Translations under genes and position numbers: made by a program
The notes under the pieces: model-generated
What the model saw: the letters and a program-made list of their open reading frames with translations, nothing else
Told to the model about the DNA's origin: nothing
The model's database searches: none
NCBI GenBank assembly: GCA_050633245.1
Contig: JBOEGD010000011.1
Span: 300,983-364,982 of the forward strand
Origin: Calditrichia bacterium
GTDB lineage: Bacteria; Calditrichota; Calditrichia; RBG-13-44-9; J075
Direction: 5' to 3'
DNA: 64,000 bases
Shown: positions 27,822 through 61,163 of the stretch, piece after piece
Layout: each line of letters opens with the position of its first letter
How positions within the stretch are numbered: the first letter of the stretch is position 1

Positions 27822-28526
27822 ATGAATAAGAACAACAACGAATTTATTGCCAGGCTCGATGCAACCATTGCAACGTATAGCTTGCTGAAACATCCCTTTT
27901 ATCAATTGTGGAATATGGGTGAGCTGGACAAGCCAACTCTTGTTGAATACGCCAAGCAATATTATGCCCACGTTGAAGCATTTCCGGTTTATTTAAGTGC
28001 CGTTCATTCTCGCTGTGAAGATACATCTGCACGTCAACTGATTCTTGAGAATTTGATTGAAGAGGAATTTGGAGAAGAAAACCACCCGGAGTTGTGGCTG
28101 CGTTTTGCAGAAGGTGTCGGTGGAACACGTGAAGCTGTAAAAAGTGCAACTGTGCTGCCCGAAACCATACAGTCCGTCAATACCCTGAAGCGTCTTACAT
28201 GCAGCGACAACTTTGCAGAAGGTATTGCAGCGCTTTATGCGTACGAATCTCAGGTGCCGGAAGTTGCTCGCAAAAAGCGTGAAGGCCTGAAAGAATTTTA
28301 TGGTATCGAAGACGATCGCACAGTTTCATACTTTAGTGTGCATGAGGAAGCAGATATTGAACATAGCGATGCAGAACGTGAAATTTTGTTGCGTTATGCT
28401 ACCGATTCATCAACTGAAGAACGTCTCTTGAATGCAGCAGAGGAATCTGCTAAAGCCATGTGGATGTTGTTAGATGGGATTTATGATAATCATGTTTCAG
28501 AATCTGCCAAGGCTTGCCTGAACTAA
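27822..28526 (+). CDS. CADD-family heme-oxygenase-like dimetal oxidase (putative p-aminobenzoate synthase)
   Basis: Gap-free match to recalled C. trachomatis CADD: Y27, Y43, E81, H88, E142, K152, Y170, H174, D178, H181; AAGGAG SD. Confidence 0.88.
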   Translation: MNKNNNEFIARLDATIATYSLLKHPFYQLWNMGELDKPTLVEYAKQYYAHVEAFPVYLSAVHSRCEDTSARQLILENLIEEEFGEENHPELWLRFAEGVGGTREAVKSATVLPETIQSVNTLKRLTCSDNFAEGIAALYAYESQVPEVARKKREGLKEFYGIEDDRTVSYFSVHEEADIEHSDAEREILLRYATDSSTEERLLNAAEESAKAMWMLLDGIYDNHVSESAKACLN

Positions 28527-41688: not shown

Positions 41689-44028
41689 CTATTTCATTAA
41701 CATCATTTTTTGTGTATACACAACGCCCTGCCATTGAACGCTGAGGAAATAAACGCCGCTTGGCTGCTCGCGGGCATCCCACTGCATCGAGTGGCTACCA
41801 GCCTGTGCATCTTCATCGACCAAGCGTATAACATGCTGGCCGAGTGCGTTAAACACATCAACCTTCACTCGACCTTCAGACGGCAACTGATAACGAATCG
41901 TTGTTTGCGGATTAAAAGGATTCGGATAGTTGCTTAGTAATGAGAATTCCGCCGGAACTGCCGTTACAACACCTCCGTTATCTGCGATGCTACCCACTTT
42001 ACTATAAGCGAGGTAATCGGACTGTTTAACATATACTGCATATCCACGTGCCGGTGCAGAGACATAAACGCGGCCATCGCCATACACCTGTGTCGTCTGT
42101 GTATTGTCAAAGGCATTTACCAGAGTGGTATTGGCCCAGTTACCCCAACCGGAAGGAGAACTGTCCACCCAAAGACCTTTAGTCTGGCTATCGTGGTTGT
42201 TGATAACCACAATCGCTCCATCACGTGTGCCATTGCCTGCGCGACGTGCAGCATAGACATGATACGTGTCGCCGGAGGGCCAGGGATTGCCAACGTCGCT
42301 CAAAACGGTGAGTCCACCACCCAGGTAGTTCTTGCGAACGTGAATGAGTTTTTTGAGATCATCCTTCAAGCTACTTGGCGGAGTGACCGTATAGCTGCTG
42401 TTGTGTGCATCTACCTGTGTTACACCATAAAAGTGCGAATAAAAGATACAGGGGCGCCCTTCATGCGTTACTGTGTAGGCATAGGCCATGTCCCAATCCT
42501 TTGTAACCCATTTATCGTGTTCTTTTCCAGTGTCGTGATTATCCACGAAAGTAACAATTGATGTCCCCGGCAGGCCGTTGCCCTGATTGTTGCGAACCAT
42601 TCCTGCATTATTTAGGTTCTTCATATCAAACGAGCTTTGATTGCCGTTCGTCATCCCGGTCAGCGTAAACTTTAATGGGAAATCGAAGCCGTCGACATCA
42701 GCATTGTTTGTTGCCACAGCATTCACCCAATCGCGGATTCGATAGTCAGCTCCCCAATATTCACCGACAATAAAGCGCTGGCTGCCATTTAGTTTCGGAA
42801 GATTGTTTACCCAATCCGCTACGTAGCTTTCCTGAAAACCACGGACAAAGTCCAAACGAAATCCGTCGAATCCGATTTCATCAGCCATCCAATAGCCCCA
42901 GTCGTTCAGGCGATTCTGCACTGTGGTACTAAAGGTATTTATATCATTACCAAAAAATTTGGTGTTGGTGATTATCTCATCGCTGCCCGGATAACCCAGC
43001 CAGTCGCTATTGTCTACAGGGTGAAAATCAGAATACGTCCAGGAGTGGTTGGCCTCGCCGGTCCCGGTATGCGTTACGTAGTTAATGCCGGTGTTGGTTT
43101 GCGCCTCAAGCGTAGAGTTGGCCAGGTTCGATCCATTGTGCCAAACAGCTGCTGGATAGTAGCCATTGTTCTGGCTCGCCCAGGCCCATTCCCAGGATCC
43201 GCTACTGGTGTCTTCAAAGCGGGCGGTAAGGCGAATTTCAATGTCGTTTGATGAGGACAGAGTGATTTTGTATTCGTCGACTGCAGAAGCGTTCTCAATG
43301 TGCGCGCGAACTGTCTGGCCAGAGCCCGGGAAGTTGTTGAATTGTCCACCGCCGTTGTTGGGTTCAGATTCCCAGGAAGGTGTGCCATTGCTACCGGCAC
43401 CCGTCCAGTCGATCTGCAAGTCGTAGCCGCGCACCGTGTTTGCAGCTACCCAGTCCAGCAGATAACCCTTAATTTGAATATAGTAGTCGCCTGTTCCGGC
43501 GTTCGGAATAGTCCAGACGATTTCATTGGTAGGATACGATTGATATTGTGTGCCGTTGCGATAGGCATGGTCATAAACATATTGCTTTACCGCAGGATTC
43601 GCTTCACGCTCATCTTCACTGGTATAAAGGTGGTTTAAAACAATGTCGGCATACACTTCTATTTTCGGGCTCTGATGCATGGTTGAAATCATGCTTTCCA
43701 GCTCCGCCCGACTACCGAACCGCGTTTCCGTTGTGCCTTTTTGATTATAGTTGCCAAGATCATAATGATCCCAGATGCCATAACCCATATCGTAAATGCC
43801 AAAATTTCCTTTGGAAGGGGAAGGCACCCAAATACCGGTGATACCTGCATTTTTTAATTCTGATGATTTTGAAGAGAGATTATCCCACCATGTGCCATTG
43901 TTCGTCGTGGCATCTACCGGAACGTCCCAGTAAAACGCCTGCATCATGGCATCATCCTGCGAAAGTGCCGGAAACGAAAAACACGCAGTAATGAGTGTCG
44001 CCAGAATTATCGTGCTTATACGCTGCAT
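41689..44028 (-). CDS. secreted GH13 alpha-amylase with inserted domain and C-terminal FlgD/T9SS-like domain
   Basis: GGAGG SD, signal peptide, MMQAFYW, DIVLNH, GFRLD, GEYW, FVDNHD; C-terminal NYPNPFNP...SGVYF. Confidence 0.9.
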   Translation of the reverse strand: MQRISTIILATLITACFSFPALSQDDAMMQAFYWDVPVDATTNNGTWWDNLSSKSSELKNAGITGIWVPSPSKGNFGIYDMGYGIWDHYDLGNYNQKGTTETRFGSRAELESMISTMHQSPKIEVYADIVLNHLYTSEDEREANPAVKQYVYDHAYRNGTQYQSYPTNEIVWTIPNAGTGDYYIQIKGYLLDWVAANTVRGYDLQIDWTGAGSNGTPSWESEPNNGGGQFNNFPGSGQTVRAHIENASAVDEYKITLSSSNDIEIRLTARFEDTSSGSWEWAWASQNNGYYPAAVWHNGSNLANSTLEAQTNTGINYVTHTGTGEANHSWTYSDFHPVDNSDWLGYPGSDEIITNTKFFGNDINTFSTTVQNRLNDWGYWMADEIGFDGFRLDFVRGFQESYVADWVNNLPKLNGSQRFIVGEYWGADYRIRDWVNAVATNNADVDGFDFPLKFTLTGMTNGNQSSFDMKNLNNAGMVRNNQGNGLPGTSIVTFVDNHDTGKEHDKWVTKDWDMAYAYTVTHEGRPCIFYSHFYGVTQVDAHNSSYTVTPPSSLKDDLKKLIHVRKNYLGGGLTVLSDVGNPWPSGDTYHVYAARRAGNGTRDGAIVVINNHDSQTKGLWVDSSPSGWGNWANTTLVNAFDNTQTTQVYGDGRVYVSAPARGYAVYVKQSDYLAYSKVGSIADNGGVVTAVPAEFSLLSNYPNPFNPQTTIRYQLPSEGRVKVDVFNALGQHVIRLVDEDAQAGSHSMQWDAREQPSGVYFLSVQWQGVVYTQKMMLMK

Positions 44029-44090
44029 ATGAATTCCTCCTGTAGGGGTTAATACTATACGAGTATAGCCAGATATCTTTATTAGAGGCA

Positions 44091-44159
44091 ACTCCCCAAA
44101 TGCAGGGTTTTTGGCAGAGTATGTGATTTTACTGAGAAAAACCTACCCAAATGGGTAGG
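44091..44159. promoter_or_regulatory. candidate NarL/LuxR-type operator boxes
   Basis: CCTACCC-AAAT-GGGTAGG (44142-44159) and degenerate ACTCCCC-AAAT-GCAGGGT (44091-44108), centres 51 bp apart. Confidence 0.4.
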
Positions 44160-54544: not shown

Positions 54545-55378
54545 ATGAAATTTAAAGGAACGGATCGCTATATCGCTACTCGCGATCTTACGGTTGCTGT
54601 AAACGCGGCGATTTCATTGCAAAAGCCGCTTCTTATAAAGGGGGAGCCGGGAACAGGTAAAACGTTGCTGGCCTATGAAATTGCACGGGCTTTGGATAAG
54701 CCTCTTATTACCTGGCATATAAAATCTACCACTACAGCACAGCAGGGCATCTACGAGTACGATGCCGTATCGCGATTGCGCGACTCTCAGCTTGGCGAAA
54801 AAGATGTGAACGATATCGCCACCTACATCAAAAAGGGCAAGCTCTGGGAGGCGTTTGAGGCAGATGAACAGCTTGTTTTGCTTATTGATGAAATTGACAA
54901 GGCCGACATAGAATTCCCCAACGACCTGCTGCAGGAATTAGATCAGATGGCCTTTTATTGCTATGAGCTTGATAAGACAATTACCGCAAAACATCGTCCC
55001 ATTGTAGTAATCACCTCCAATAATGAAAAAGAGCTACCGGACGCTTTCTTGCGTCGCTGCTTTTTCCACTACATTTCTTTCCCAGATAATCAAACCATGT
55101 TAGACATTATAGATGTGCATTTCCCGAAACTTGAGAAGAAGCTGATTAATAGCGCGATGCGCTTGTTCTACGAGTTGCGCGACACCCGTGGCATTCGAAA
55201 AAAGCCATCGACAAGCGAACTGTTGGATTGGCTGGCATTGCTTGTAGCTGGTGATATAGGGAATGAGGAGCTCGATGAGGTTAAGCTGACTGAAGGCTTG
55301 CCGCCTCTAACCGGAGCTCTTCTGAAAAATGAGCAAGATTATGAATTTCTTAATCGTCTGCGCAAATATCGTGGCTAG
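54545..55378 (+). CDS. MoxR/CoxD-family AAA+ ATPase
   Basis: GEPGTGKT, YEYDAVSRLRDSQ, LIDEIDKAD, TSNNEKELPDAFLRRC, KPSTSE. Confidence 0.93.
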   Translation: MKFKGTDRYIATRDLTVAVNAAISLQKPLLIKGEPGTGKTLLAYEIARALDKPLITWHIKSTTTAQQGIYEYDAVSRLRDSQLGEKDVNDIATYIKKGKLWEAFEADEQLVLLIDEIDKADIEFPNDLLQELDQMAFYCYELDKTITAKHRPIVVITSNNEKELPDAFLRRCFFHYISFPDNQTMLDIIDVHFPKLEKKLINSAMRLFYELRDTRGIRKKPSTSELLDWLALLVAGDIGNEELDEVKLTEGLPPLTGALLKNEQDYEFLNRLRKYRG

Positions 55379-55387
55379 GAGAATTCT

Positions 55388-56596
55388 GTGTTTCTGAAGT
55401 TCTTTTTGCTTCTAAAAGAAGATGGTTTGCCGGTTAGCATGAAAGAATTGCTAACCTTTCTTGAAGCGTTGAATGAAGATGTTATTGACAAAAATGTTGA
55501 TGACTTCTACTATCTTGCTCGATCCATATTTGTTAAGCATGAGCAACACCTCGATCGTTTTGACGTCCTATTTGGACGCTTCTTCGCCGGTTTAGATAAC
55601 ACAGATTCCGAGAAAAGTAATTTTTCAATCCCGGAAGACTGGCTTAAGCGCAAGTTAATGCGCCATCTGACGGATGAGGAAAAGGACGCCATTAAAGCGC
55701 TTGGTGGCCCCGAAGAATTGATGAAGCGCTTTAAGGAACTCATGGACGAGCAGAAAAAGCGACATGAAGGCGGCAACAAATGGATTGGCACCGGCGGCAC
55801 ATCACCATTTGGCTCAAATGGCTATAACCCTGAAGGCTATCGACTGCAAAATGATGGCAAGGGAAACGGTCGTGCAGTTAAGATGTGGCAGCAGCGAGAT
55901 TATCGAAACTTGGATGATTCGATTTCGTTGAACACCCGAAATATGAAGATGGTTCTAAAACGTCTGCGTGTATTAACGCGCGAGGGTAGGGAGGAGGAGC
56001 TGGATATTGATCGCTCCATCCGAAAGACCTCAGACAATGCTGGTTTGCTGGAAATCGAGATGATGCCAACACGCCGGAACAATGTAAAGGTATTGCTCTT
56101 TTTTGATGTTGGTGGATCAATGGATGAACATATTGAGACTTGCGAACAGCTTTTTTCTGCTGCCAGACATCAGTTTAAGCATCTGGAGTTCTACTATTTC
56201 CATAATTGCGTCTATGAGAGCCTCTGGAAAGACAACAGTCGTCGCCGTTTTGATAAAACATCTACCTATCGTATGCTGAATACATACAATAAGGATTATA
56301 AGGTGATCTTTGTTGGGGACGCCTCCATGTCTCCATATGAGTTGTTTTATGCCGGTGGCAGTATAGAACATATGAATGAAGAACCCGGCGCTGTTTGGCT
56401 CGAGCGCATTTGTGAACACTTCGAAAATGTTGTTTGGTTAAATCCACTGCCCCCGGACTATTGGCGCTATTCACCGACCGTTGAGGGAATTCAGGAATTG
56501 CTTGGCTATCGCATGTTTCCGCTTTCGCTGGGAGGTCTTCAAGCAGCAATGAAAGCGCTTCAAAAAAAGAACGAACAAAATAATTCCGTCGAATAA
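55388..56596 (+). CDS. CoxE-like VWA domain protein (MoxR partner)
   Basis: GGNKWIGTGGTSPFG, MIDAS-like DVGGSM, YFHNC, VGDASMSPYE, VWLNP; AGGAG SD, GTG start. Confidence 0.9.
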   Translation: MFLKFFLLLKEDGLPVSMKELLTFLEALNEDVIDKNVDDFYYLARSIFVKHEQHLDRFDVLFGRFFAGLDNTDSEKSNFSIPEDWLKRKLMRHLTDEEKDAIKALGGPEELMKRFKELMDEQKKRHEGGNKWIGTGGTSPFGSNGYNPEGYRLQNDGKGNGRAVKMWQQRDYRNLDDSISLNTRNMKMVLKRLRVLTREGREEELDIDRSIRKTSDNAGLLEIEMMPTRRNNVKVLLFFDVGGSMDEHIETCEQLFSAARHQFKHLEFYYFHNCVYESLWKDNSRRRFDKTSTYRMLNTYNKDYKVIFVGDASMSPYELFYAGGSIEHMNEEPGAVWLERICEHFENVVWLNPLPPDYWRYSPTVEGIQELLGYRMFPLSLGGLQAAMKALQKKNEQNNSVE

Positions 56597-56632
56597 AATT
56601 TATCCCGACACTACAAATTTGAGGTGATTATT

Positions 56633-57634
56633 ATGACGCAGAAAAATAAACGTTTTACACTTGCTAAACGACCAACGGGTATCCCAACAGCAGATGTGTG
56701 GGACTATGCCGAAGAGAATATACCAAATGCCGGCGCTGGTGAAATACTTCTTCGCAATCGTTATATTTCTCTCGATCCCGCCATGCGTGGCTGGATGAAC
56801 GCAGCACGCTCTTATATTGCACCGATTGAGCTGGGCGAGGTTATGCGAGCCGGTACCATCAGCGAAGTGTTGGAATCAGATAATCCAAAGTTCAAAAAAG
56901 GCGACATGGTTTCCGGAATGCTTGGCGTGCAGGAATATGCTGTTTCCGATGGAAAGGGGCTTTATCCAATTGATACATCTATTGCTCCCGCTCCGCTCTA
57001 TCTAAGCGTATTGGGTTTAACCGGTATGACGGCATACTTTGGCCTGCTGAACGTGTGTGAACCAAAAGAAGGCGATGTCGTAGTTGTTTCAGGTGCAGCC
57101 GGTGCAGTTGGCTCAATCGTGGGGCAAATAGCCAAGATAAAGGGTTGCCATACCATCGGAATAGCCGGTGGCCCTGCAAAGTGCCAGCAACTTTTAGATG
57201 AATATCGCTATGATGCGGCTATTGATTATAAGTCGGAACACGTGCGAAAGGCATTGCATAAGCATGCTTCTAAAGGCGTCGATGTTTATTTTGACAACGT
57301 TGGAGGTGAAATTTTAGATGCAGTACTTACGGTGATAAGACGCGGTGCGCGAATTGGAATCTGTGGTGCCATCTCGCAATATAACAATACGACGCCTATT
57401 CAAGGTCCGTCTAACTACCTCTCACTATTGGTAAATCGTGCTCGCATGGAAGGATTTGTTGTTTTCGACTATGCCGCGCAATACCGTCAGGCAGCAATGG
57501 AAATGGCCGGATGGATGGCTTCCGGAAAGCTAAAATCGAAAGAGCATATTGTCGAGGGAATTGAAACCTTTCCAGATCGACTGATGATGTTGTTTGATGG
57601 CCGTAATGATGGTAAGTTGATACTTGAAGTTTAG
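56633..57634 (+). CDS. NADP-dependent oxidoreductase, prostaglandin/alkenal-one reductase (PTGR/CurA-like, Zn-independent MDR)
   Basis: SLDPAMRGWM, GMTAYFGL, VSGAAGAVGS, DNVGG, CGAISQYN, GK; ATG 56633 after GAGGTGA. Confidence 0.92.
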   Translation: MTQKNKRFTLAKRPTGIPTADVWDYAEENIPNAGAGEILLRNRYISLDPAMRGWMNAARSYIAPIELGEVMRAGTISEVLESDNPKFKKGDMVSGMLGVQEYAVSDGKGLYPIDTSIAPAPLYLSVLGLTGMTAYFGLLNVCEPKEGDVVVVSGAAGAVGSIVGQIAKIKGCHTIGIAGGPAKCQQLLDEYRYDAAIDYKSEHVRKALHKHASKGVDVYFDNVGGEILDAVLTVIRRGARIGICGAISQYNNTTPIQGPSNYLSLLVNRARMEGFVVFDYAAQYRQAAMEMAGWMASGKLKSKEHIVEGIETFPDRLMMLFDGRNDGKLILEV

Positions 57635-57675
57635 AGCAGTTCTTTTACTACTCGCAAATAGGCTGAGGAGAATGA

Positions 57676-59052
57676 ATGGCTTTTGAAGCTTTTACCGCAG
57701 ACTGGTTAGTAGAATGGGTCCGCTCCATAAATGCAAGCGAGGCCTATCGCTCAGCCGGCGCGACGTGGAAATGGCCAATGATTCTTACTATGGACGAGAT
57801 GCCGGACGGCGATACCCGCTCGGTTTACCTCGATCTATTTGAAGGCCATTGCCGCAACGCTAATATTGCTTCTACAGAGAACATGAGTAACGCGCCCTAC
57901 ATAATTTCGGCGAATATGCAAATCTGGCAGAAGTTGTTGAATGGTGAACTCGATCCCATCAGCTCGCTTATGCGTGGTAAGTTAAAGCTTCAACGTGGTA
58001 AGCTGTTTACACTTGCCAAGTATGGGAGTGCAGCCAAGCAGCTGGTGCTATCTGCTCAGCAGATAGAGACAACATTCCCGGGTAAAGATGCTGCTACCGC
58101 GCCGCGACAGAATGGAGAACCTGAAAATCTCCCAATATCAGATGCGAGCGGCAACGGCTTCCACAGCAGTTTTAAAACGACCTCTCCAGCCGGATTGGAT
58201 CATCAAAGTCTGCCTATGCAGTTGTTCCAAAAAGCCAAGCGCTGGGGAATTTGGGATCCCAGATCGATCTCGATGGAGCAAGACCAGAGAGACTGGCAAA
58301 TACTCGATTCGCTCGAGAAAGAAGTGTTGCTACATCTTACAGCCTTATTCCAGGCGGGCGAAGAGTCTGTTACACTAGACCTATTGCCTCTTATGCTTGC
58401 CATTGCCCGAGAAGGTCGAATTGAAGAGGAAATGTATCTTAGTACATTTCTTTGGGAAGAGGCAAAACATACTGAATTTTTTCGACGATTCCTCGATGAA
58501 GTCGCCATAGATAGCAGCGACCTATCTCGTTTTCACAGCCCCAGTTATCGTAAACTGTTTTATGAAGAATTACCCACTGCGATGAATGCCTTGTTAACCG
58601 ATGCCGGTGCAGCCGCGCAAATCAGGGCTTCAGCGACCTATAATATGGTTGTTGAAGGAACGTTAGCCGAAACCGGCTATCAGGCATATTTCAAAATGCT
58701 AAAAGAGAACAATCTGATGCCCGGAATGCAGGAAGGGATTCTTTACCTAAAACGAGACGAATCTCGACATATTGCCTACGGTATTTTTCTTCTGTCTCGA
58801 CTGGTTTCTGCAAATCCGGAGCTCTGGAGAGTTTTAGAAGATCAGATGAATCGCCTTTTAGAGGTCGCCTTGGGAACAATTAATGAAATTTTTGATCGAT
58901 ATGAGACATTACCCTTTGGGTTGAAACTGGAAGATTTTCTTGATTTTGCCATGAGCCAGTTTTCCCATCGCATGAATCGGCTGGAAAAGGCTCGCAAACA
59001 GACGCTAACTGAACTTCTAACAGAGCAAACACAGTTGGCAGAAGACCTATAA
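57676..59052 (+). CDS. SCP2 sterol/lipid-carrier domain fused to R2-like ligand-binding oxidase (Mn/Fe R2lox)
   Basis: aa 1-135 SCP2-like (W..LL.GELDP...M.GKLKL); linker; aa ~163-458 R2lox with GEESV, EEAKH, YNMVVEG.LAE.GY, DESRH. GAGGAG SD. Confidence 0.88.
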   Translation: MAFEAFTADWLVEWVRSINASEAYRSAGATWKWPMILTMDEMPDGDTRSVYLDLFEGHCRNANIASTENMSNAPYIISANMQIWQKLLNGELDPISSLMRGKLKLQRGKLFTLAKYGSAAKQLVLSAQQIETTFPGKDAATAPRQNGEPENLPISDASGNGFHSSFKTTSPAGLDHQSLPMQLFQKAKRWGIWDPRSISMEQDQRDWQILDSLEKEVLLHLTALFQAGEESVTLDLLPLMLAIAREGRIEEEMYLSTFLWEEAKHTEFFRRFLDEVAIDSSDLSRFHSPSYRKLFYEELPTAMNALLTDAGAAAQIRASATYNMVVEGTLAETGYQAYFKMLKENNLMPGMQEGILYLKRDESRHIAYGIFLLSRLVSANPELWRVLEDQMNRLLEVALGTINEIFDRYETLPFGLKLEDFLDFAMSQFSHRMNRLEKARKQTLTELLTEQTQLAEDL

Positions 59053-59108: not shown

Positions 59109-61163
59109 CTAGCGTTTCCCAATTCCAAATGGATAGTAGATATTGTCCTCATCTCGATTGCCACTTGCATCAGTGTACCAGTCCGTATGAGCAGTCCCGC
59201 TACTATTTATCCAAGGTGTCCAGTAATAGTAGGTGAGATCAACATCGATGCCTTCATAGGGATAGTCCCATACTCCAGGCACATCAAAACTCCAGCTAAG
59301 ATTGTTCTGCATGTAATAATACTTGCCAGAGTTTGCGTTGCTTTTATCATCCTCTGTGCCAAAATAGCTGTCATCTACAAGGTCGGTTGGGGCAGCGCCT
59401 TTGGCATGCAATTCTTTTCCACGCTCTCCGTCGATTATGATGAATGAATTAAATGGCGGGTCCCCAATATCGGCATATGTCTGTACTGAGCCGAATTCTA
59501 TATTGATGGTAACAGTGTCATAATCAACAGGGCGAGTAGCTGCCTGAGTATTTACAAGATCTCCTGCTGCGAAGGGCGTAAGCAGGTCATAGCCATCGTC
59601 GAAGACAATGATTGTAGGTAGAGTCTGATTACTTTCCAATCCTTTTGCATCGATGTTGATATAGCCACTTGTTAGAGAGCTACCGGTTACAGTTGCTATG
59701 GCATCAGAACTGATTGGTAACTGAAATCCAAAACCATTGCGGTTATCTGTTCCCATTGCGCGAATAACAAAGTCTGCAAACATCGCTTTAATGAGATTGT
59801 CAGAATTTGTAACCATAGTAAAATGATGCCCAATAACCAGATCGTTATAGTCAAAGTCACCATAGGAAGGCCATTCATCTTCAAAGCCGATCGTACCAGC
59901 TGTTGCGGGAACATTGAAAGCTTTATTGGCATCACATGGATAATCATCCTGCGTGTTATCAATACCATCGTTATCGCAATCGTCCGGTGTATCAACCGGA
60001 GGTAATTCGTCCACTTTGATGTTTTCGATTTCGCTTGCGGTTACATAAAAAACTGCATCGTTAAAATCATTATCACCACCGTTGCGATTTAGATCCTCAA
60101 AGCCGATAAGTAGAATTTCTCGAAATTCATCATAGAGCAGTACATTGTGTGGGCGCTTTGCCGGATCGCTTTCCGGGTTCAAATCCGGGTCTGAAAAATA
60201 AATTGCGTTGCCATCCTTTAGTGTACGAGCATTTTTGTTCCATCCGTTCGCGACAATAAACCAGCCGATTTCCTTGTTTGGTGGAAATTTGCCCATATAA
60301 ATTTTGTCGCCGCTGTAGAGACCACCTCCACCACCTTTGTAAGAAAAATTTGGAAATACAGCAATCAACTCAGATATATCAGAGACATTCTCCGGCGGAT
60401 TGCCAACATCGTATGTGTAGTAGCCAACACCATTTTTATAGCCGGCACCCTCGTGAACAAAAGTGATCCAGAGCTCCACACTGTCAGTTGTAACAATATT
60501 ACTCTCAGTACCCTCCGCAATATACTCGGGGTGATACGTTGGAACAGGTTTACGTTCAGGCAGAGAGGCATTTATGTCGCGCAGAAAATTTGAGTCCACA
60601 ACATCCCGATCTTCGGTAAGGTAGTTTGGAACACCATTATTGTCCCATTCCCCGATAAACACATATTCTCGGCTTTTCGATGAGCTGTTTGGTGTCACAA
60701 CCGGACCAGTAAAACTGGCTTTTAGTGGTTGCTGTCCACCGAAGGTGTGCGTTAAGGAACCAGACTCAATTACAAGTGTCACCTGATTAACAAAACCGAC
60801 AGACTGGGCTTCAACATAAAGGCTGTCGTATGTTTTCGCGATGCTGATAGTAGATTCAAGCAGCCCGCTGCTGTTCGTTGCGCCAGTAAACAAGATTGCA
60901 CCGAGATTGCCTTGAGCATCAGGGGCTGCACTATAGATGTCTATGCGAATTCCGGTAAGTGGTGAGTTGTCTGGTGCAAGGGTGTTGATCGAAAGCTCGA
61001 TGTTCTGGGTAGTACTAAAATCAAAGTCGTCAGGTGCCTCCAGATTATCTGAGCCGTTTCCACCTGTAACAGGATCAGCTACATGCTCGCCACAGGCCAC
61101 CAGTAATAATAGTGCTGTTGTTAAAAATGTGATGCTGAAACGCAATATCAATTTGCCAACCAT
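59109..61163 (-). CDS. LruC/DUF4842-domain surface lipoprotein (with DUF4114-like and TSP3-like segments)
   Basis: AGGAGG SD, lipobox LVAC, FDFSTT, EGAGYKN, GFEDL..DNDFNDAVF, DCDNDGIDN..D.YP, GFEDEWP..GDFDYNDLV. Confidence 0.8.
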   Translation of the reverse strand: MVGKLILRFSITFLTTALLLLVACGEHVADPVTGGNGSDNLEAPDDFDFSTTQNIELSINTLAPDNSPLTGIRIDIYSAAPDAQGNLGAILFTGATNSSGLLESTISIAKTYDSLYVEAQSVGFVNQVTLVIESGSLTHTFGGQQPLKASFTGPVVTPNSSSKSREYVFIGEWDNNGVPNYLTEDRDVVDSNFLRDINASLPERKPVPTYHPEYIAEGTESNIVTTDSVELWITFVHEGAGYKNGVGYYTYDVGNPPENVSDISELIAVFPNFSYKGGGGGLYSGDKIYMGKFPPNKEIGWFIVANGWNKNARTLKDGNAIYFSDPDLNPESDPAKRPHNVLLYDEFREILLIGFEDLNRNGGDNDFNDAVFYVTASEIENIKVDELPPVDTPDDCDNDGIDNTQDDYPCDANKAFNVPATAGTIGFEDEWPSYGDFDYNDLVIGHHFTMVTNSDNLIKAMFADFVIRAMGTDNRNGFGFQLPISSDAIATVTGSSLTSGYINIDAKGLESNQTLPTIIVFDDGYDLLTPFAAGDLVNTQAATRPVDYDTVTINIEFGSVQTYADIGDPPFNSFIIIDGERGKELHAKGAAPTDLVDDSYFGTEDDKSNANSGKYYYMQNNLSWSFDVPGVWDYPYEGIDVDLTYYYWTPWINSSGTAHTDWYTDASGNRDEDNIYYPFGIGKR

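Follow-up and report, generated by a model that had tools for sequence, protein, structure and literature searches.

Sterol carrier protein 2 (SCP2) domains are attached to, or assist, several enzymes acting on lipids, namely mammalian SCPx and MFE-2, the alkylsulfatase SdsA1 of Pseudomonas aeruginosa, and the ubiquinone hydroxylases with which UbiJ/UbiT work. The ligand-binding oxidases termed R2-like (R2lox), on the other side, are proteins that have been under structural study since 2009. The present work deals with a gene in which both elements are joined. It is located in a 64,000-nucleotide stretch of contig JBOEGD010000011.1 from a Calditrichia bacterium (assembly GCA_050633245.1), hereafter called the window, and it encodes a natural two-domain enzyme made of an SCP2-fold domain, a flexible linker of about 25 amino acids (aa) and a complete R2lox. 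We consider it rather likely that the SCP2 domain is a tethered carrier from which the R2lox oxygenase receives its substrate, a long-chain aliphatic molecule.

According to PMC9314684, R2lox proteins, for which a first-pass annotation of the window also mentioned co-purifying fatty acids, were purified with bound C16/C18 hydroxy fatty acids, and a flexible G-H loop gates their ligand tunnel. The authors of that paper suggested that a partner protein could transfer the substrate through this loop. They described the physiological substrate as undetermined and warned that fatty acids trapped during expression in Escherichia coli were possibly misleading. The same paper (2022, citing Kumar 2020) mentions that R2lox of haloarchaea is encoded in clusters together with ferredoxin and a sterol carrier protein, and that it is induced by hexadecane. 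More recently, GkR2loxI of Geobacillus kaustophilus was located in a cluster with alcohol dehydrogenase (ADH), aldehyde dehydrogenase (ALDH) and beta-oxidation genes; E. coli lysates containing it modestly depleted C10–C22 alkanes, and an alkane monooxygenase was claimed (PMC10867098, 2024). The part of that paper available here makes no mention of a carrier protein. The description of R2lox as an orphan enzyme, given at first pass, therefore stands for the physiological substrate as judged in PMC9314684, while the activity claimed in PMC10867098 goes against it. With the haloarchaeal clustering and the alkane monooxygenase claim already published, the idea of an SCP2–R2lox link is not wholly new. 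No paper on an SCP2–R2lox fusion was found in the literature searched, the scope of which left aside subscription journals and supplements.

Architecture and identity of the two domains

The fusion gene was claimed to be one unbroken open reading frame (ORF), and indeed 458 aa are encoded from ATG to stop without any frame break. The predicted N-terminus of the protein (MA-x-E-x-F-T-x-x-W) agrees with that of its relatives. When the linker was read by eye, without a formal scan, no start codon was seen that is in frame and has a ribosome-binding site, in agreement with the earlier annotation, in which no internal start had been seen either. The proposed layout, with SCP2 in aa 1–135 followed by a polar linker and R2lox, is in accordance with both the domain matches and the composition of the linker (aa 136–160), which is polar and rich in Ala, Gly, Pro and Asn.

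The N-terminal domain was identified by its similarity to solved structures. Residues 3–131 match TT1886 of Thermus thermophilus (1wfr, E 7.6e-24) and residues 4–130 match 2cx7, named 'Sterol carrier protein 2' (E 1.9e-23). The Pfam family SCP2 (PF02036) was recognized on aa 49–106 with 19.1 bits, under the cut-off of 21.3 (E 0.0017), and is passed by the free-standing SCP2 orthologues from two operons described below (L077 and L079; 28.9 and 31.0 bits). Comparison of the predicted domain structure with 2cx7_B using Foldseek gave an E-value of 4.4e-9, a target-normalised TM of 0.90 and an rmsd of 1.8 Å over 130 columns. The SCP2 fold assigned at first pass is thus confirmed by the matches to 2cx7 and 1wfr and by the TM value. 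Across 129 fused proteins, G57, W84 and G108 are invariant in this domain. The median identity in this set amounts to 38% for the N-domain and 60% for the oxidase domain. The linker is much more variable: the equivalents of P135 and L174 are separated by 21–59 aa (median 33), with a median identity to the window protein of 12%.

The C-terminal domain is a complete R2lox. Residues 163–453 scored 401.9 bits against the NCBIfam equivalog NF006202 (cut-off 315), covering profile positions 3–292 of 297. The solved R2lox chains 3ee4, 7qbp and 4hr0 match the domain with E-values of 5e-64 to 6e-63. In the structural comparison, the R2lox PDB entries among the matches listed (ranks 1–34) showed target-normalised TM values of 0.89–0.95 to the model of the domain, and 7qbp, 3ee4 and 4hr0 are found at 0.91–0.95. 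All six metal ligands are present (E229, E262, H265, E327, E362 and H365) and align to E69, E102, H105, E167, E202 and H205 of GkR2loxI. The cross-link pair, assessed at the level of the residues alone, is also present as V232 and Y322, corresponding to V72 and Y162. The residue numbers of GkR2loxI were taken from PMC6060897, and the register from the alignment to 4hr0, of which the deposited chain has 14 extra N-terminal residues. The constant offset of +160 to the G. kaustophilus protein, which had been stated at first pass, proved correct for all ligands and for V232/Y322. Among the 129 fused proteins, H265, H365 and Y335 are strictly conserved, E327 and E362 are present in 128, and E229, V232, E262 and Y322 in 127.

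The family assignment also has to be considered with respect to class I ribonucleotide reductase (RNR), as Pfam places the domain in Ribonuc_red_sm (E 1.4e-17) and JGI calls relatives 'ribonucleoside-diphosphate reductase beta chain'. A role as RNR small subunit (R2) acting with an R1 partner has nevertheless hardly any probability. The RNR beta equivalogs reached 56.9, 48.5 and 34 bits on this domain, far below their cut-offs of 237, 309 and 310, whereas the R2lox equivalog was passed, the R2lox-specific Val/Tyr pair is present and the top structural matches are all R2lox. Moreover, no match to an R1 family (NrdA/NrdE) was obtained among 38 long ORFs of the window (8 scanned with Pfam, 30 with NCBIfam), which is a weak argument given that R1 could be encoded elsewhere in the genome. 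The earlier annotation had named an R2 function as the finding that would speak against it, and the equivalog scores point the other way.

The AlphaFold2 model of the whole protein, computed with the 129 fused homologues as input, has a mean pLDDT of 92.8, with values under 50 restricted to aa 144–153. Both domains are intact. A structure search of the model against the PDB found no single chain covering the two domains. The pTM was 0.85 for the window protein and 0.75 for the orthologue of Balneolaceae YR4-1 (P0114); with the larger domain alone accounting for about 65% of the residues, these values only hint at interdomain packing and were not counted as evidence. Prediction of the complex between separate SCP2 and R2lox domains gave scores of 0.07, 0.46 and 0.14 (mark 0.32) and, run without controls, speaks neither for nor against binding.

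Distribution of the fused architecture

A word-indexed protein search returned 5944 proteins at E ≤ 0.001, from which the best 120 were listed. These best 120 matches are all 383–491 aa long and 46–75% identical to the window protein, and 119 of the 120 clusters cover at least 93% of the query. Both PF00268 and PF02036 had been precomputed for 39 of them (manual count). A few matches, from Calditrichota, Gemmatimonadetes, Roseiflexaceae and Balneolaceae bacterium YR4-1, carry the source name 'R2-like ligand-binding oxidase'. Among representatives clustered at 50% identity, 1636 matched at E ≤ 0.001 and 155 at E ≤ 1e-30; in the best 150 of these 1636, ten match from SCP2 through R2lox in one stretch. 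Larger fusions of 803–2290 aa, for instance with an added reductase domain, did not appear at E ≤ 1e-20, which is weak evidence.

Genomic loci were collected in a scan that yielded 157 relatives, of which the best 80 loci were kept with up to 6 kb of DNA on each side (some contigs measure 2.3–4.4 kb). As these loci were picked by similarity to the fused query, the proportions given hereafter are not family-wide frequencies. Each half of the window protein, and also a profile built from 37 SCP2 domains, served as query against all ORFs of these loci. The fused form was found in 32 of the 80 loci, giving 33 of 81 rows when the window is included: 21 Balneolota, 5 Gemmatimonadota, 4 Calditrichota, 1 KSB1, 1 unclassified and the window itself. 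In a quick unrooted IQ-TREE analysis of the R2lox domain, all 33 fused rows are located on one side of a branch with an SH-aLRT value of 95; the adjacent, operon and SCP2-less forms are on the other side.

The fused architecture is consequently common and forms a large clade already annotated as R2lox in public databases. The rarity implied at first pass does not hold. The fusion is under selection, as indicated by the full-length coverage in 119 of the 120 clusters, by the catalytic residues kept in 127–129 of the 129 proteins and by an N-domain with invariant residues of its own. Adjacent scp2–r2lox gene pairs do occur in relatives, and the loss of a stop codon between two such genes through an assembly or sequencing error could in principle mimic a fusion. 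Its probability is negligible: the in-frame fusion is observed in 32 independent loci of at least four phyla, and the fused forms carry the linker of 21–59 aa, which is missing in the adjacent-gene forms. The recurrence of the same architecture in 119 of the 120 clusters and in 32 of the 80 loci excludes an assembly artefact.

Split forms and plasmid-borne operons

The 48 unfused loci fall into three groups. In three of them (L040, L061 and L074) an SCP2 ORF abuts the R2lox ORF. The scp2 stop and the r2lox start overlap as ATGA in L040 and L061, and the two genes of L074 are separated by a 13-nt spacer containing GGAGG. These are true, translationally coupled gene pairs and not frameshifts. 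In two further loci, from a Bacillota metagenome-assembled genome (L077) and Thermaerobacter (L079), a separate SCP2 gene is located about 1 kb upstream of R2lox in a tight operon coding for TetR, SCP2, Zn-alcohol dehydrogenase, R2lox and aldehyde dehydrogenase, which is followed by an SDR gene in L077. The free SCP2 proteins of these five loci are 41–46% identical to the window N-domain from end to end. The remaining 43 loci (42 Chloroflexota, mostly Ktedonobacteria, and 1 Trueperaceae) show no SCP2 in the examined flanks. In Ktedonobacteria (e.g. L042 1389-2033 and L043 6919-7632), a TetR regulator gene is often found before the unfused R2lox gene (9 loci) and a gene for a haemolysin-III-family membrane protein after it (9 loci), with ABC transporter genes nearby and no SCP2.

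The occurrence of the same two parts as linked genes, either adjacent or in one operon, makes the functional link between SCP2 and R2lox well supported. The Rosetta-stone logic of the first-pass annotation is vindicated by these relatives, and the proposed comparison with unfused R2lox genes found SCP2 genes beside 5 of the 48.

A tblastn search of PLSDB gave 59 plasmids with a match, 9 of which were inspected; none of the 59 matches is a fusion. On pROB01 of Rhodococcus opacus B4, the genes for an NDMA-dependent ADH, R2lox, an NAD(P)/FAD oxidoreductase, ferredoxin, ALDH, SCP2 and a fatty-acid-CoA ligase are located on one strand. The same gene set is split into two blocks on pRB11 of R. oxybenzonivorans, and in Rhodococcus sp. 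008 the genes for ADH, reductase, ferredoxin and R2lox are followed by a transposase. On pMyong1 of Mycobacterium intracellulare subsp. yongonense, the series consists of TetR, R2lox, a 136-aa SCP2-like protein, fatty-acid-CoA ligase and ADH; this 136-aa protein is only weakly SCP2 (E 0.0021, below threshold). Operons of the Rhodococcus type spell out a pathway in which an oxygenase with its electron chain is followed by the steps leading from alcohol through aldehyde and acid to acyl-CoA; a lipid carrier is encoded as well.

No sequence similarity was detected between the Rhodococcus SCP2 and the window N-domain (BLASTP E 16; hhalign E 0.019, probability 2.5%), and Alkyl_sulf_C of Pfam matched the Rhodococcus protein weakly (E 0.007). 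With no sequence relationship detected between the two, at least two separate recruitments of the SCP2 fold to R2lox seem to have taken place.

More distant homologues are encoded on haloarchaeal plasmids (H11, H13, H16 and H22; 26–38% identical). An unannotated Natronococcus record contains one weak SCP2-like ORF (E 0.0084) about 1 kb upstream of the R2-like gene. The haloarchaeal R2lox–sterol carrier protein cluster attributed to Kumar 2020 was neither reproduced nor refuted by these plasmid loci.

Two other plasmid loci were recorded. On pHME505 of Haloferax mediterranei (L087 5004-10626), an R2-like 'hypothetical protein', 27.6% identical to the window oxidase domain, heads a same-strand row of genes for NADPH:quinone oxidoreductase, acyl carrier protein, ketoacyl-ACP synthase, holo-ACP synthase, malonyltransferase and FabG. 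These genes make up an archaeal cluster for biosynthesis of the fatty-acid type. On pHTA426 of G. kaustophilus (L089 4917-7658), a second R2lox has an MFS transporter on one side and a class I adenylate-forming enzyme on the other, and a UbiD-family decarboxylase is encoded upstream, a context unlike the chromosomal ADH/ALDH cluster presented in PMC10867098.

Genomic neighbourhood of the fusion gene

The features of the window are listed in Table 1.

Table 1. Features of the window considered in this study (positions in nt from the first letter of the window).
Feature	Position	Strand	Remarks
SCP2-R2lox fusion gene	57676..59052	+	ATG start, 458 codons plus stop; single ORF without internal stop
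Shine-Dalgarno-like GAGGAG	57665..57670	+	5 nt before the ATG of the fusion gene; read directly
SCP2-fold domain (TT1886/2cx7 type), aa 1-135	57676..58080	+	Sequence and predicted-fold matches
Interdomain linker, aa 136-160	58081..58155	+	Low pLDDT, variable in homologues
R2lox domain	58156..59049	+	NF006202, PDB R2lox chains, model match
Stretch with all six metal-ligand codons and those of the V232/Y322 cross-link pair	58360..58770	+	Alignment to GkR2loxI
CurA/LTB4-12HD-type NADPH enone reductase (MDR superfamily)	56624..57634	+	41 nt upstream of the fusion gene; Pfam ADH_N_2 and ADH_zinc_N
MoxR-like AAA ATPase (AAA_5), then VWA/CoxE-like protein after 9 nt	54545-56596	+	Upstream of the enone reductase gene
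CADD-family putative folate-metabolism protein	27822-28526	+	TIGR04305, 278.9 bits (cut-off 200)
Alpha-amylase-like, secreted-looking large protein	41689-44091	-	Apparent type IX secretion sorting tail; both read from the translation without family scan
Secreted-looking DUF4114 and DUF4842 protein	59109-61163	-	Convergent with the fusion gene

The enone reductase scored 388.9 bits against NF058644, below the cut-off of 440. No terminator-like site was found between its gene and the fusion gene. The two are possibly co-transcribed, and a functional link between them is unsupported. The distant R2-like gene of pHME505 also adjoins a gene of the NADPH:quinone oxidoreductase family, in that case located after it, which may be a coincidence.

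Further upstream, a gap of 27 nt separates the AAA/VWA pair from the enone reductase gene. Pairs of MoxR-like AAA and VWA proteins are known as cofactor-insertion chaperones. Homologues of the MoxR-like AAA, VWA and enone reductase proteins were found beside R2lox in none of the 80 loci, and the pair was consequently dropped as candidate metal-insertion chaperone for the oxidase. Clustering of all ORFs of the 80 loci revealed no conserved neighbour of the fusion, only phylum-level synteny (for instance gidA/gidB, WYL regulators and peptidases). Around the fusion gene, scans for promoters and terminators gave counts no higher than in shuffled sequence. There is no sign of recent transfer, the G+C content being flat at 0.42–0.47.

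Among the other genes of the window, one encodes a CADD-family protein. CADD of Chlamydia is reportedly a self-sacrificing Fe/Mn oxygenase that makes p-aminobenzoate, so with this gene the window would code for a second oxygenase from a family that reportedly uses Fe and Mn. The sorting tail of the alpha-amylase-like protein would be in line with an FCB-group organism; the best protein matches came from Calditrichota.

Proposed function

In the mechanism that we propose, the SCP2 domain would capture a poorly soluble long-chain aliphatic molecule and pass it into the hydrophobic channel of R2lox, or remove the product. The likeliest substrate would be an alkane or alkyl chain of about C10–C24, or its derivative in the form of a fatty alcohol, aldehyde or acid. 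The R2lox domain, as an O2-activating Mn/Fe oxidase of the ferritin-like type, would then perform an O2-dependent two-electron oxidation, most probably a hydroxylation, with electrons supplied by a ferredoxin/ferredoxin-reductase pair that may be encoded elsewhere in the genome. The tether would raise the local concentration of the carrier and fix a 1:1 stoichiometry. The choice of substrate follows the operon contexts, which point to long-chain aliphatic molecules; nothing in them points to the sterol-like or isoprenoid substrate included in the earlier proposal.

The G-H loop (aa 408–417) was considered as hand-over site, since its conservation is higher in the fused relatives than in the unfused ones. 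Of the 33 fused rows, 32 have Y409 in this loop, versus 8 of the 48 unfused ones, and P413, F414, G415 and L416 are each found in all 33 fused rows versus 34, 46, 33 and 28 of the 48. The loop is only a lead, weakened by phylogenetic non-independence, since Balneolota account for 21 of these 33 rows. A docking surface was also sought from R2lox residues that differ between fused and unfused forms; only positions 194 and 329 passed, too few to define one.

Alternatively, the SCP2 domain might not carry the substrate at all and rather target the enzyme to a membrane, a lipid droplet or an oil–water interface, or serve as regulatory lid or dimerisation module. The long and variable linker, which indicates that no fixed geometry is needed, the lower conservation of the N-domain compared to the oxidase domain, and the 43 of 48 unfused relatives without linked SCP2 would be in agreement with such a role. 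It is judged improbable, however, as the whole SCP2 fold has been kept, with its TM of 0.90 to 2cx7, and soluble free-standing orthologues of the same length are found in operons. Furthermore, two unrelated SCP2 subfamilies occur in R2lox operons, a situation that shared lipid binding explains better than a specific protein contact.

Several observations weigh against delivery of an exogenous alkane by a tethered carrier. No SCP2 gene was found near 43 of the 48 unfused relatives using the 37-domain profile at E-values up to 1; the oxidase is not always in need of a linked carrier. No annotated SCP2 was found beside the distant R2-like genes in the four haloarchaeal plasmid loci. As reported in PMC9314684, redox cycling of GkR2loxI with bound fatty acids gave no product, and according to PMC10867098 the E202A/H205A mutant lost its activity only partly, in crude lysate. 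The published evidence for alkane activity is weak. Regarding the genomic context, no electron donor gene adjoins the fusion gene in Pfam and NCBIfam scans of the window ORFs, and the fusions of Balneolaceae adjoin the housekeeping genes gidA and gidB. Within 6 kb of the fused loci, no homologues of ADH, ferredoxin or ferredoxin reductase were found, with the exception of a weak ADH-like ORF in L034 (E 3e-6). ALDH-like ORFs were seen only at the edges of L034 and L048, and fatty-acid-CoA-ligase-like ORFs only in L003 and L011. As the fused genes are devoid of a catabolic context, the alkane pathway is borrowed from unfused relatives, which are 40–64% identical in the R2lox domain.

These observations lead to the main open alternative, in which the fused enzyme would act on endogenous lipids, in a housekeeping or biosynthetic capacity, and would not be a catabolic alkane hydroxylase, with the SCP2 domain extracting a lipid from the cell's own membrane. 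Such an enzyme might make hydroxy fatty acids, modify a membrane lipid or act on a hydrocarbon or isoprenoid quinone precursor. UbiJ/UbiT set a precedent, being SCP2 proteins which assist hydroxylases of ubiquinone biosynthesis. The fused genes are solitary, with varying and often housekeeping neighbourhoods, and the position of the fused clade on one side of a branch (SH-aLRT 95) leaves room for a change of role. The distant R2-like gene of pHME505 adjoins genes for ACP, KAS, AcpS, FabD and FabG, and the hydroxy fatty acids co-purified with R2lox (PMC9314684) would also fit. On the other hand, no biosynthetic partner is conserved beside the fusions either, and the nearest unfused relatives with an informative context point to ADH/ALDH catabolism. 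Action on endogenous lipids is therefore regarded as possible, if on the unlikely side. The proposal that the fused clade is a self-contained lipid oxygenase, responsible for an undescribed housekeeping modification of lipids in Balneolota, Calditrichota, Gemmatimonadota and KSB1, is put forward equally tentatively. Its role would differ from that of R2lox in alkane-pathway operons: the carrier domain would withdraw an endogenous membrane lipid or hydrocarbon from the bilayer, which the enzyme would then hydroxylate or oxidise in another way. If it is true, the native substrate should co-purify with the covalently attached carrier, which would identify the substrate of R2lox.

The SCP2–R2lox fusion gives independent genomic evidence that R2lox acts on a poorly soluble long-chain lipid or hydrocarbon delivered by a carrier, and its SCP2 domain is a candidate for the partner protein postulated at the tunnel-gating loop. 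As a reagent, the fused protein offers a single polypeptide in which the carrier may retain the native substrate, and the two-gene and operon versions are at hand for comparison. As likely electron donors, which were missing from the in vitro assays, a ferredoxin and an FAD reductase are indicated by the operons of Rhodococcus. If delivery of a long-chain aliphatic substrate by the tethered carrier is confirmed, the Mn/Fe R2lox proteins would join the bacterial hydroxylases of aliphatic C–H bonds.

Comparison with known systems

SCPx, MFE-2, SdsA1 and UbiJ/UbiT follow a like logic, in that the catalytic partner is offered a hydrophobic chain by a module of SCP2 fold. The partners are a thiolase, a dehydrogenase/hydratase, a sulfatase, and flavin or U32 hydroxylases, respectively; none of them is a ferritin-like Mn/Fe oxidase. 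The closest solved relative of the window N-domain is the SCP2 of T. thermophilus (2cx7; TT1886, 1wfr), with an E-value of about 1e-23, 37–38% identity and TM values of 0.81–0.90. It is free-standing and 130–143 aa long, unlike the fused domain of the window, and no paper on its ligands or partners was found in the literature searched.

The cyanobacterial aldehyde-deformylating oxygenase (ADO) is also a ferritin-like dimetal oxygenase and obtains its long-chain substrate from a partner, an analogy for R2lox drawn in PMC9314684. The partner of ADO, acyl-ACP reductase, is nevertheless an enzyme and not a carrier, and it is unfused. The ADO comparison structure 5uxg matches the window protein weakly in sequence (E 7.8e-5), and MtR2lox and SeR2lox showed no ADO activity according to PMC9314684. 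Compared to multicomponent alkane hydroxylase systems, the electron-transfer and dehydrogenase genes do not accompany the window oxygenase; they are present on the Rhodococcus plasmids, with ADH and ALDH alone in L077 and L079. The operons of Bacillota thus carry ADH and ALDH, those of Rhodococcus add ferredoxin, reductase and fatty-acid-CoA ligase, and the window fusion is without these genes. The SCP2 of the actinobacterial R2lox operons belongs to a different subfamily from the window N-domain.

With the R2lox proteins of G. kaustophilus (R2loxI, 4hr0), Mycobacterium tuberculosis (3ee4), Saccharopolyspora erythraea (7qbp) and Sulfolobus acidocaldarius (I and II, 6qrz and 7qbk), the window protein shares the fold (TM 0.89–0.95) at 38–41% identity, together with the six metal ligands, the Val/Tyr pair and a conserved Tyr corresponding to Y175. 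The solved chains have a single domain of 316–330 aa, to which the window protein adds an SCP2 domain of 135 aa and the linker at the N-terminus. In the unfused scp2 and r2lox sets, the same two functions are genetically linked but encoded as separate polypeptides. The fusion is a domain-architecture variant of R2lox which turns the published hint from gene neighbourhoods into a covalent link.

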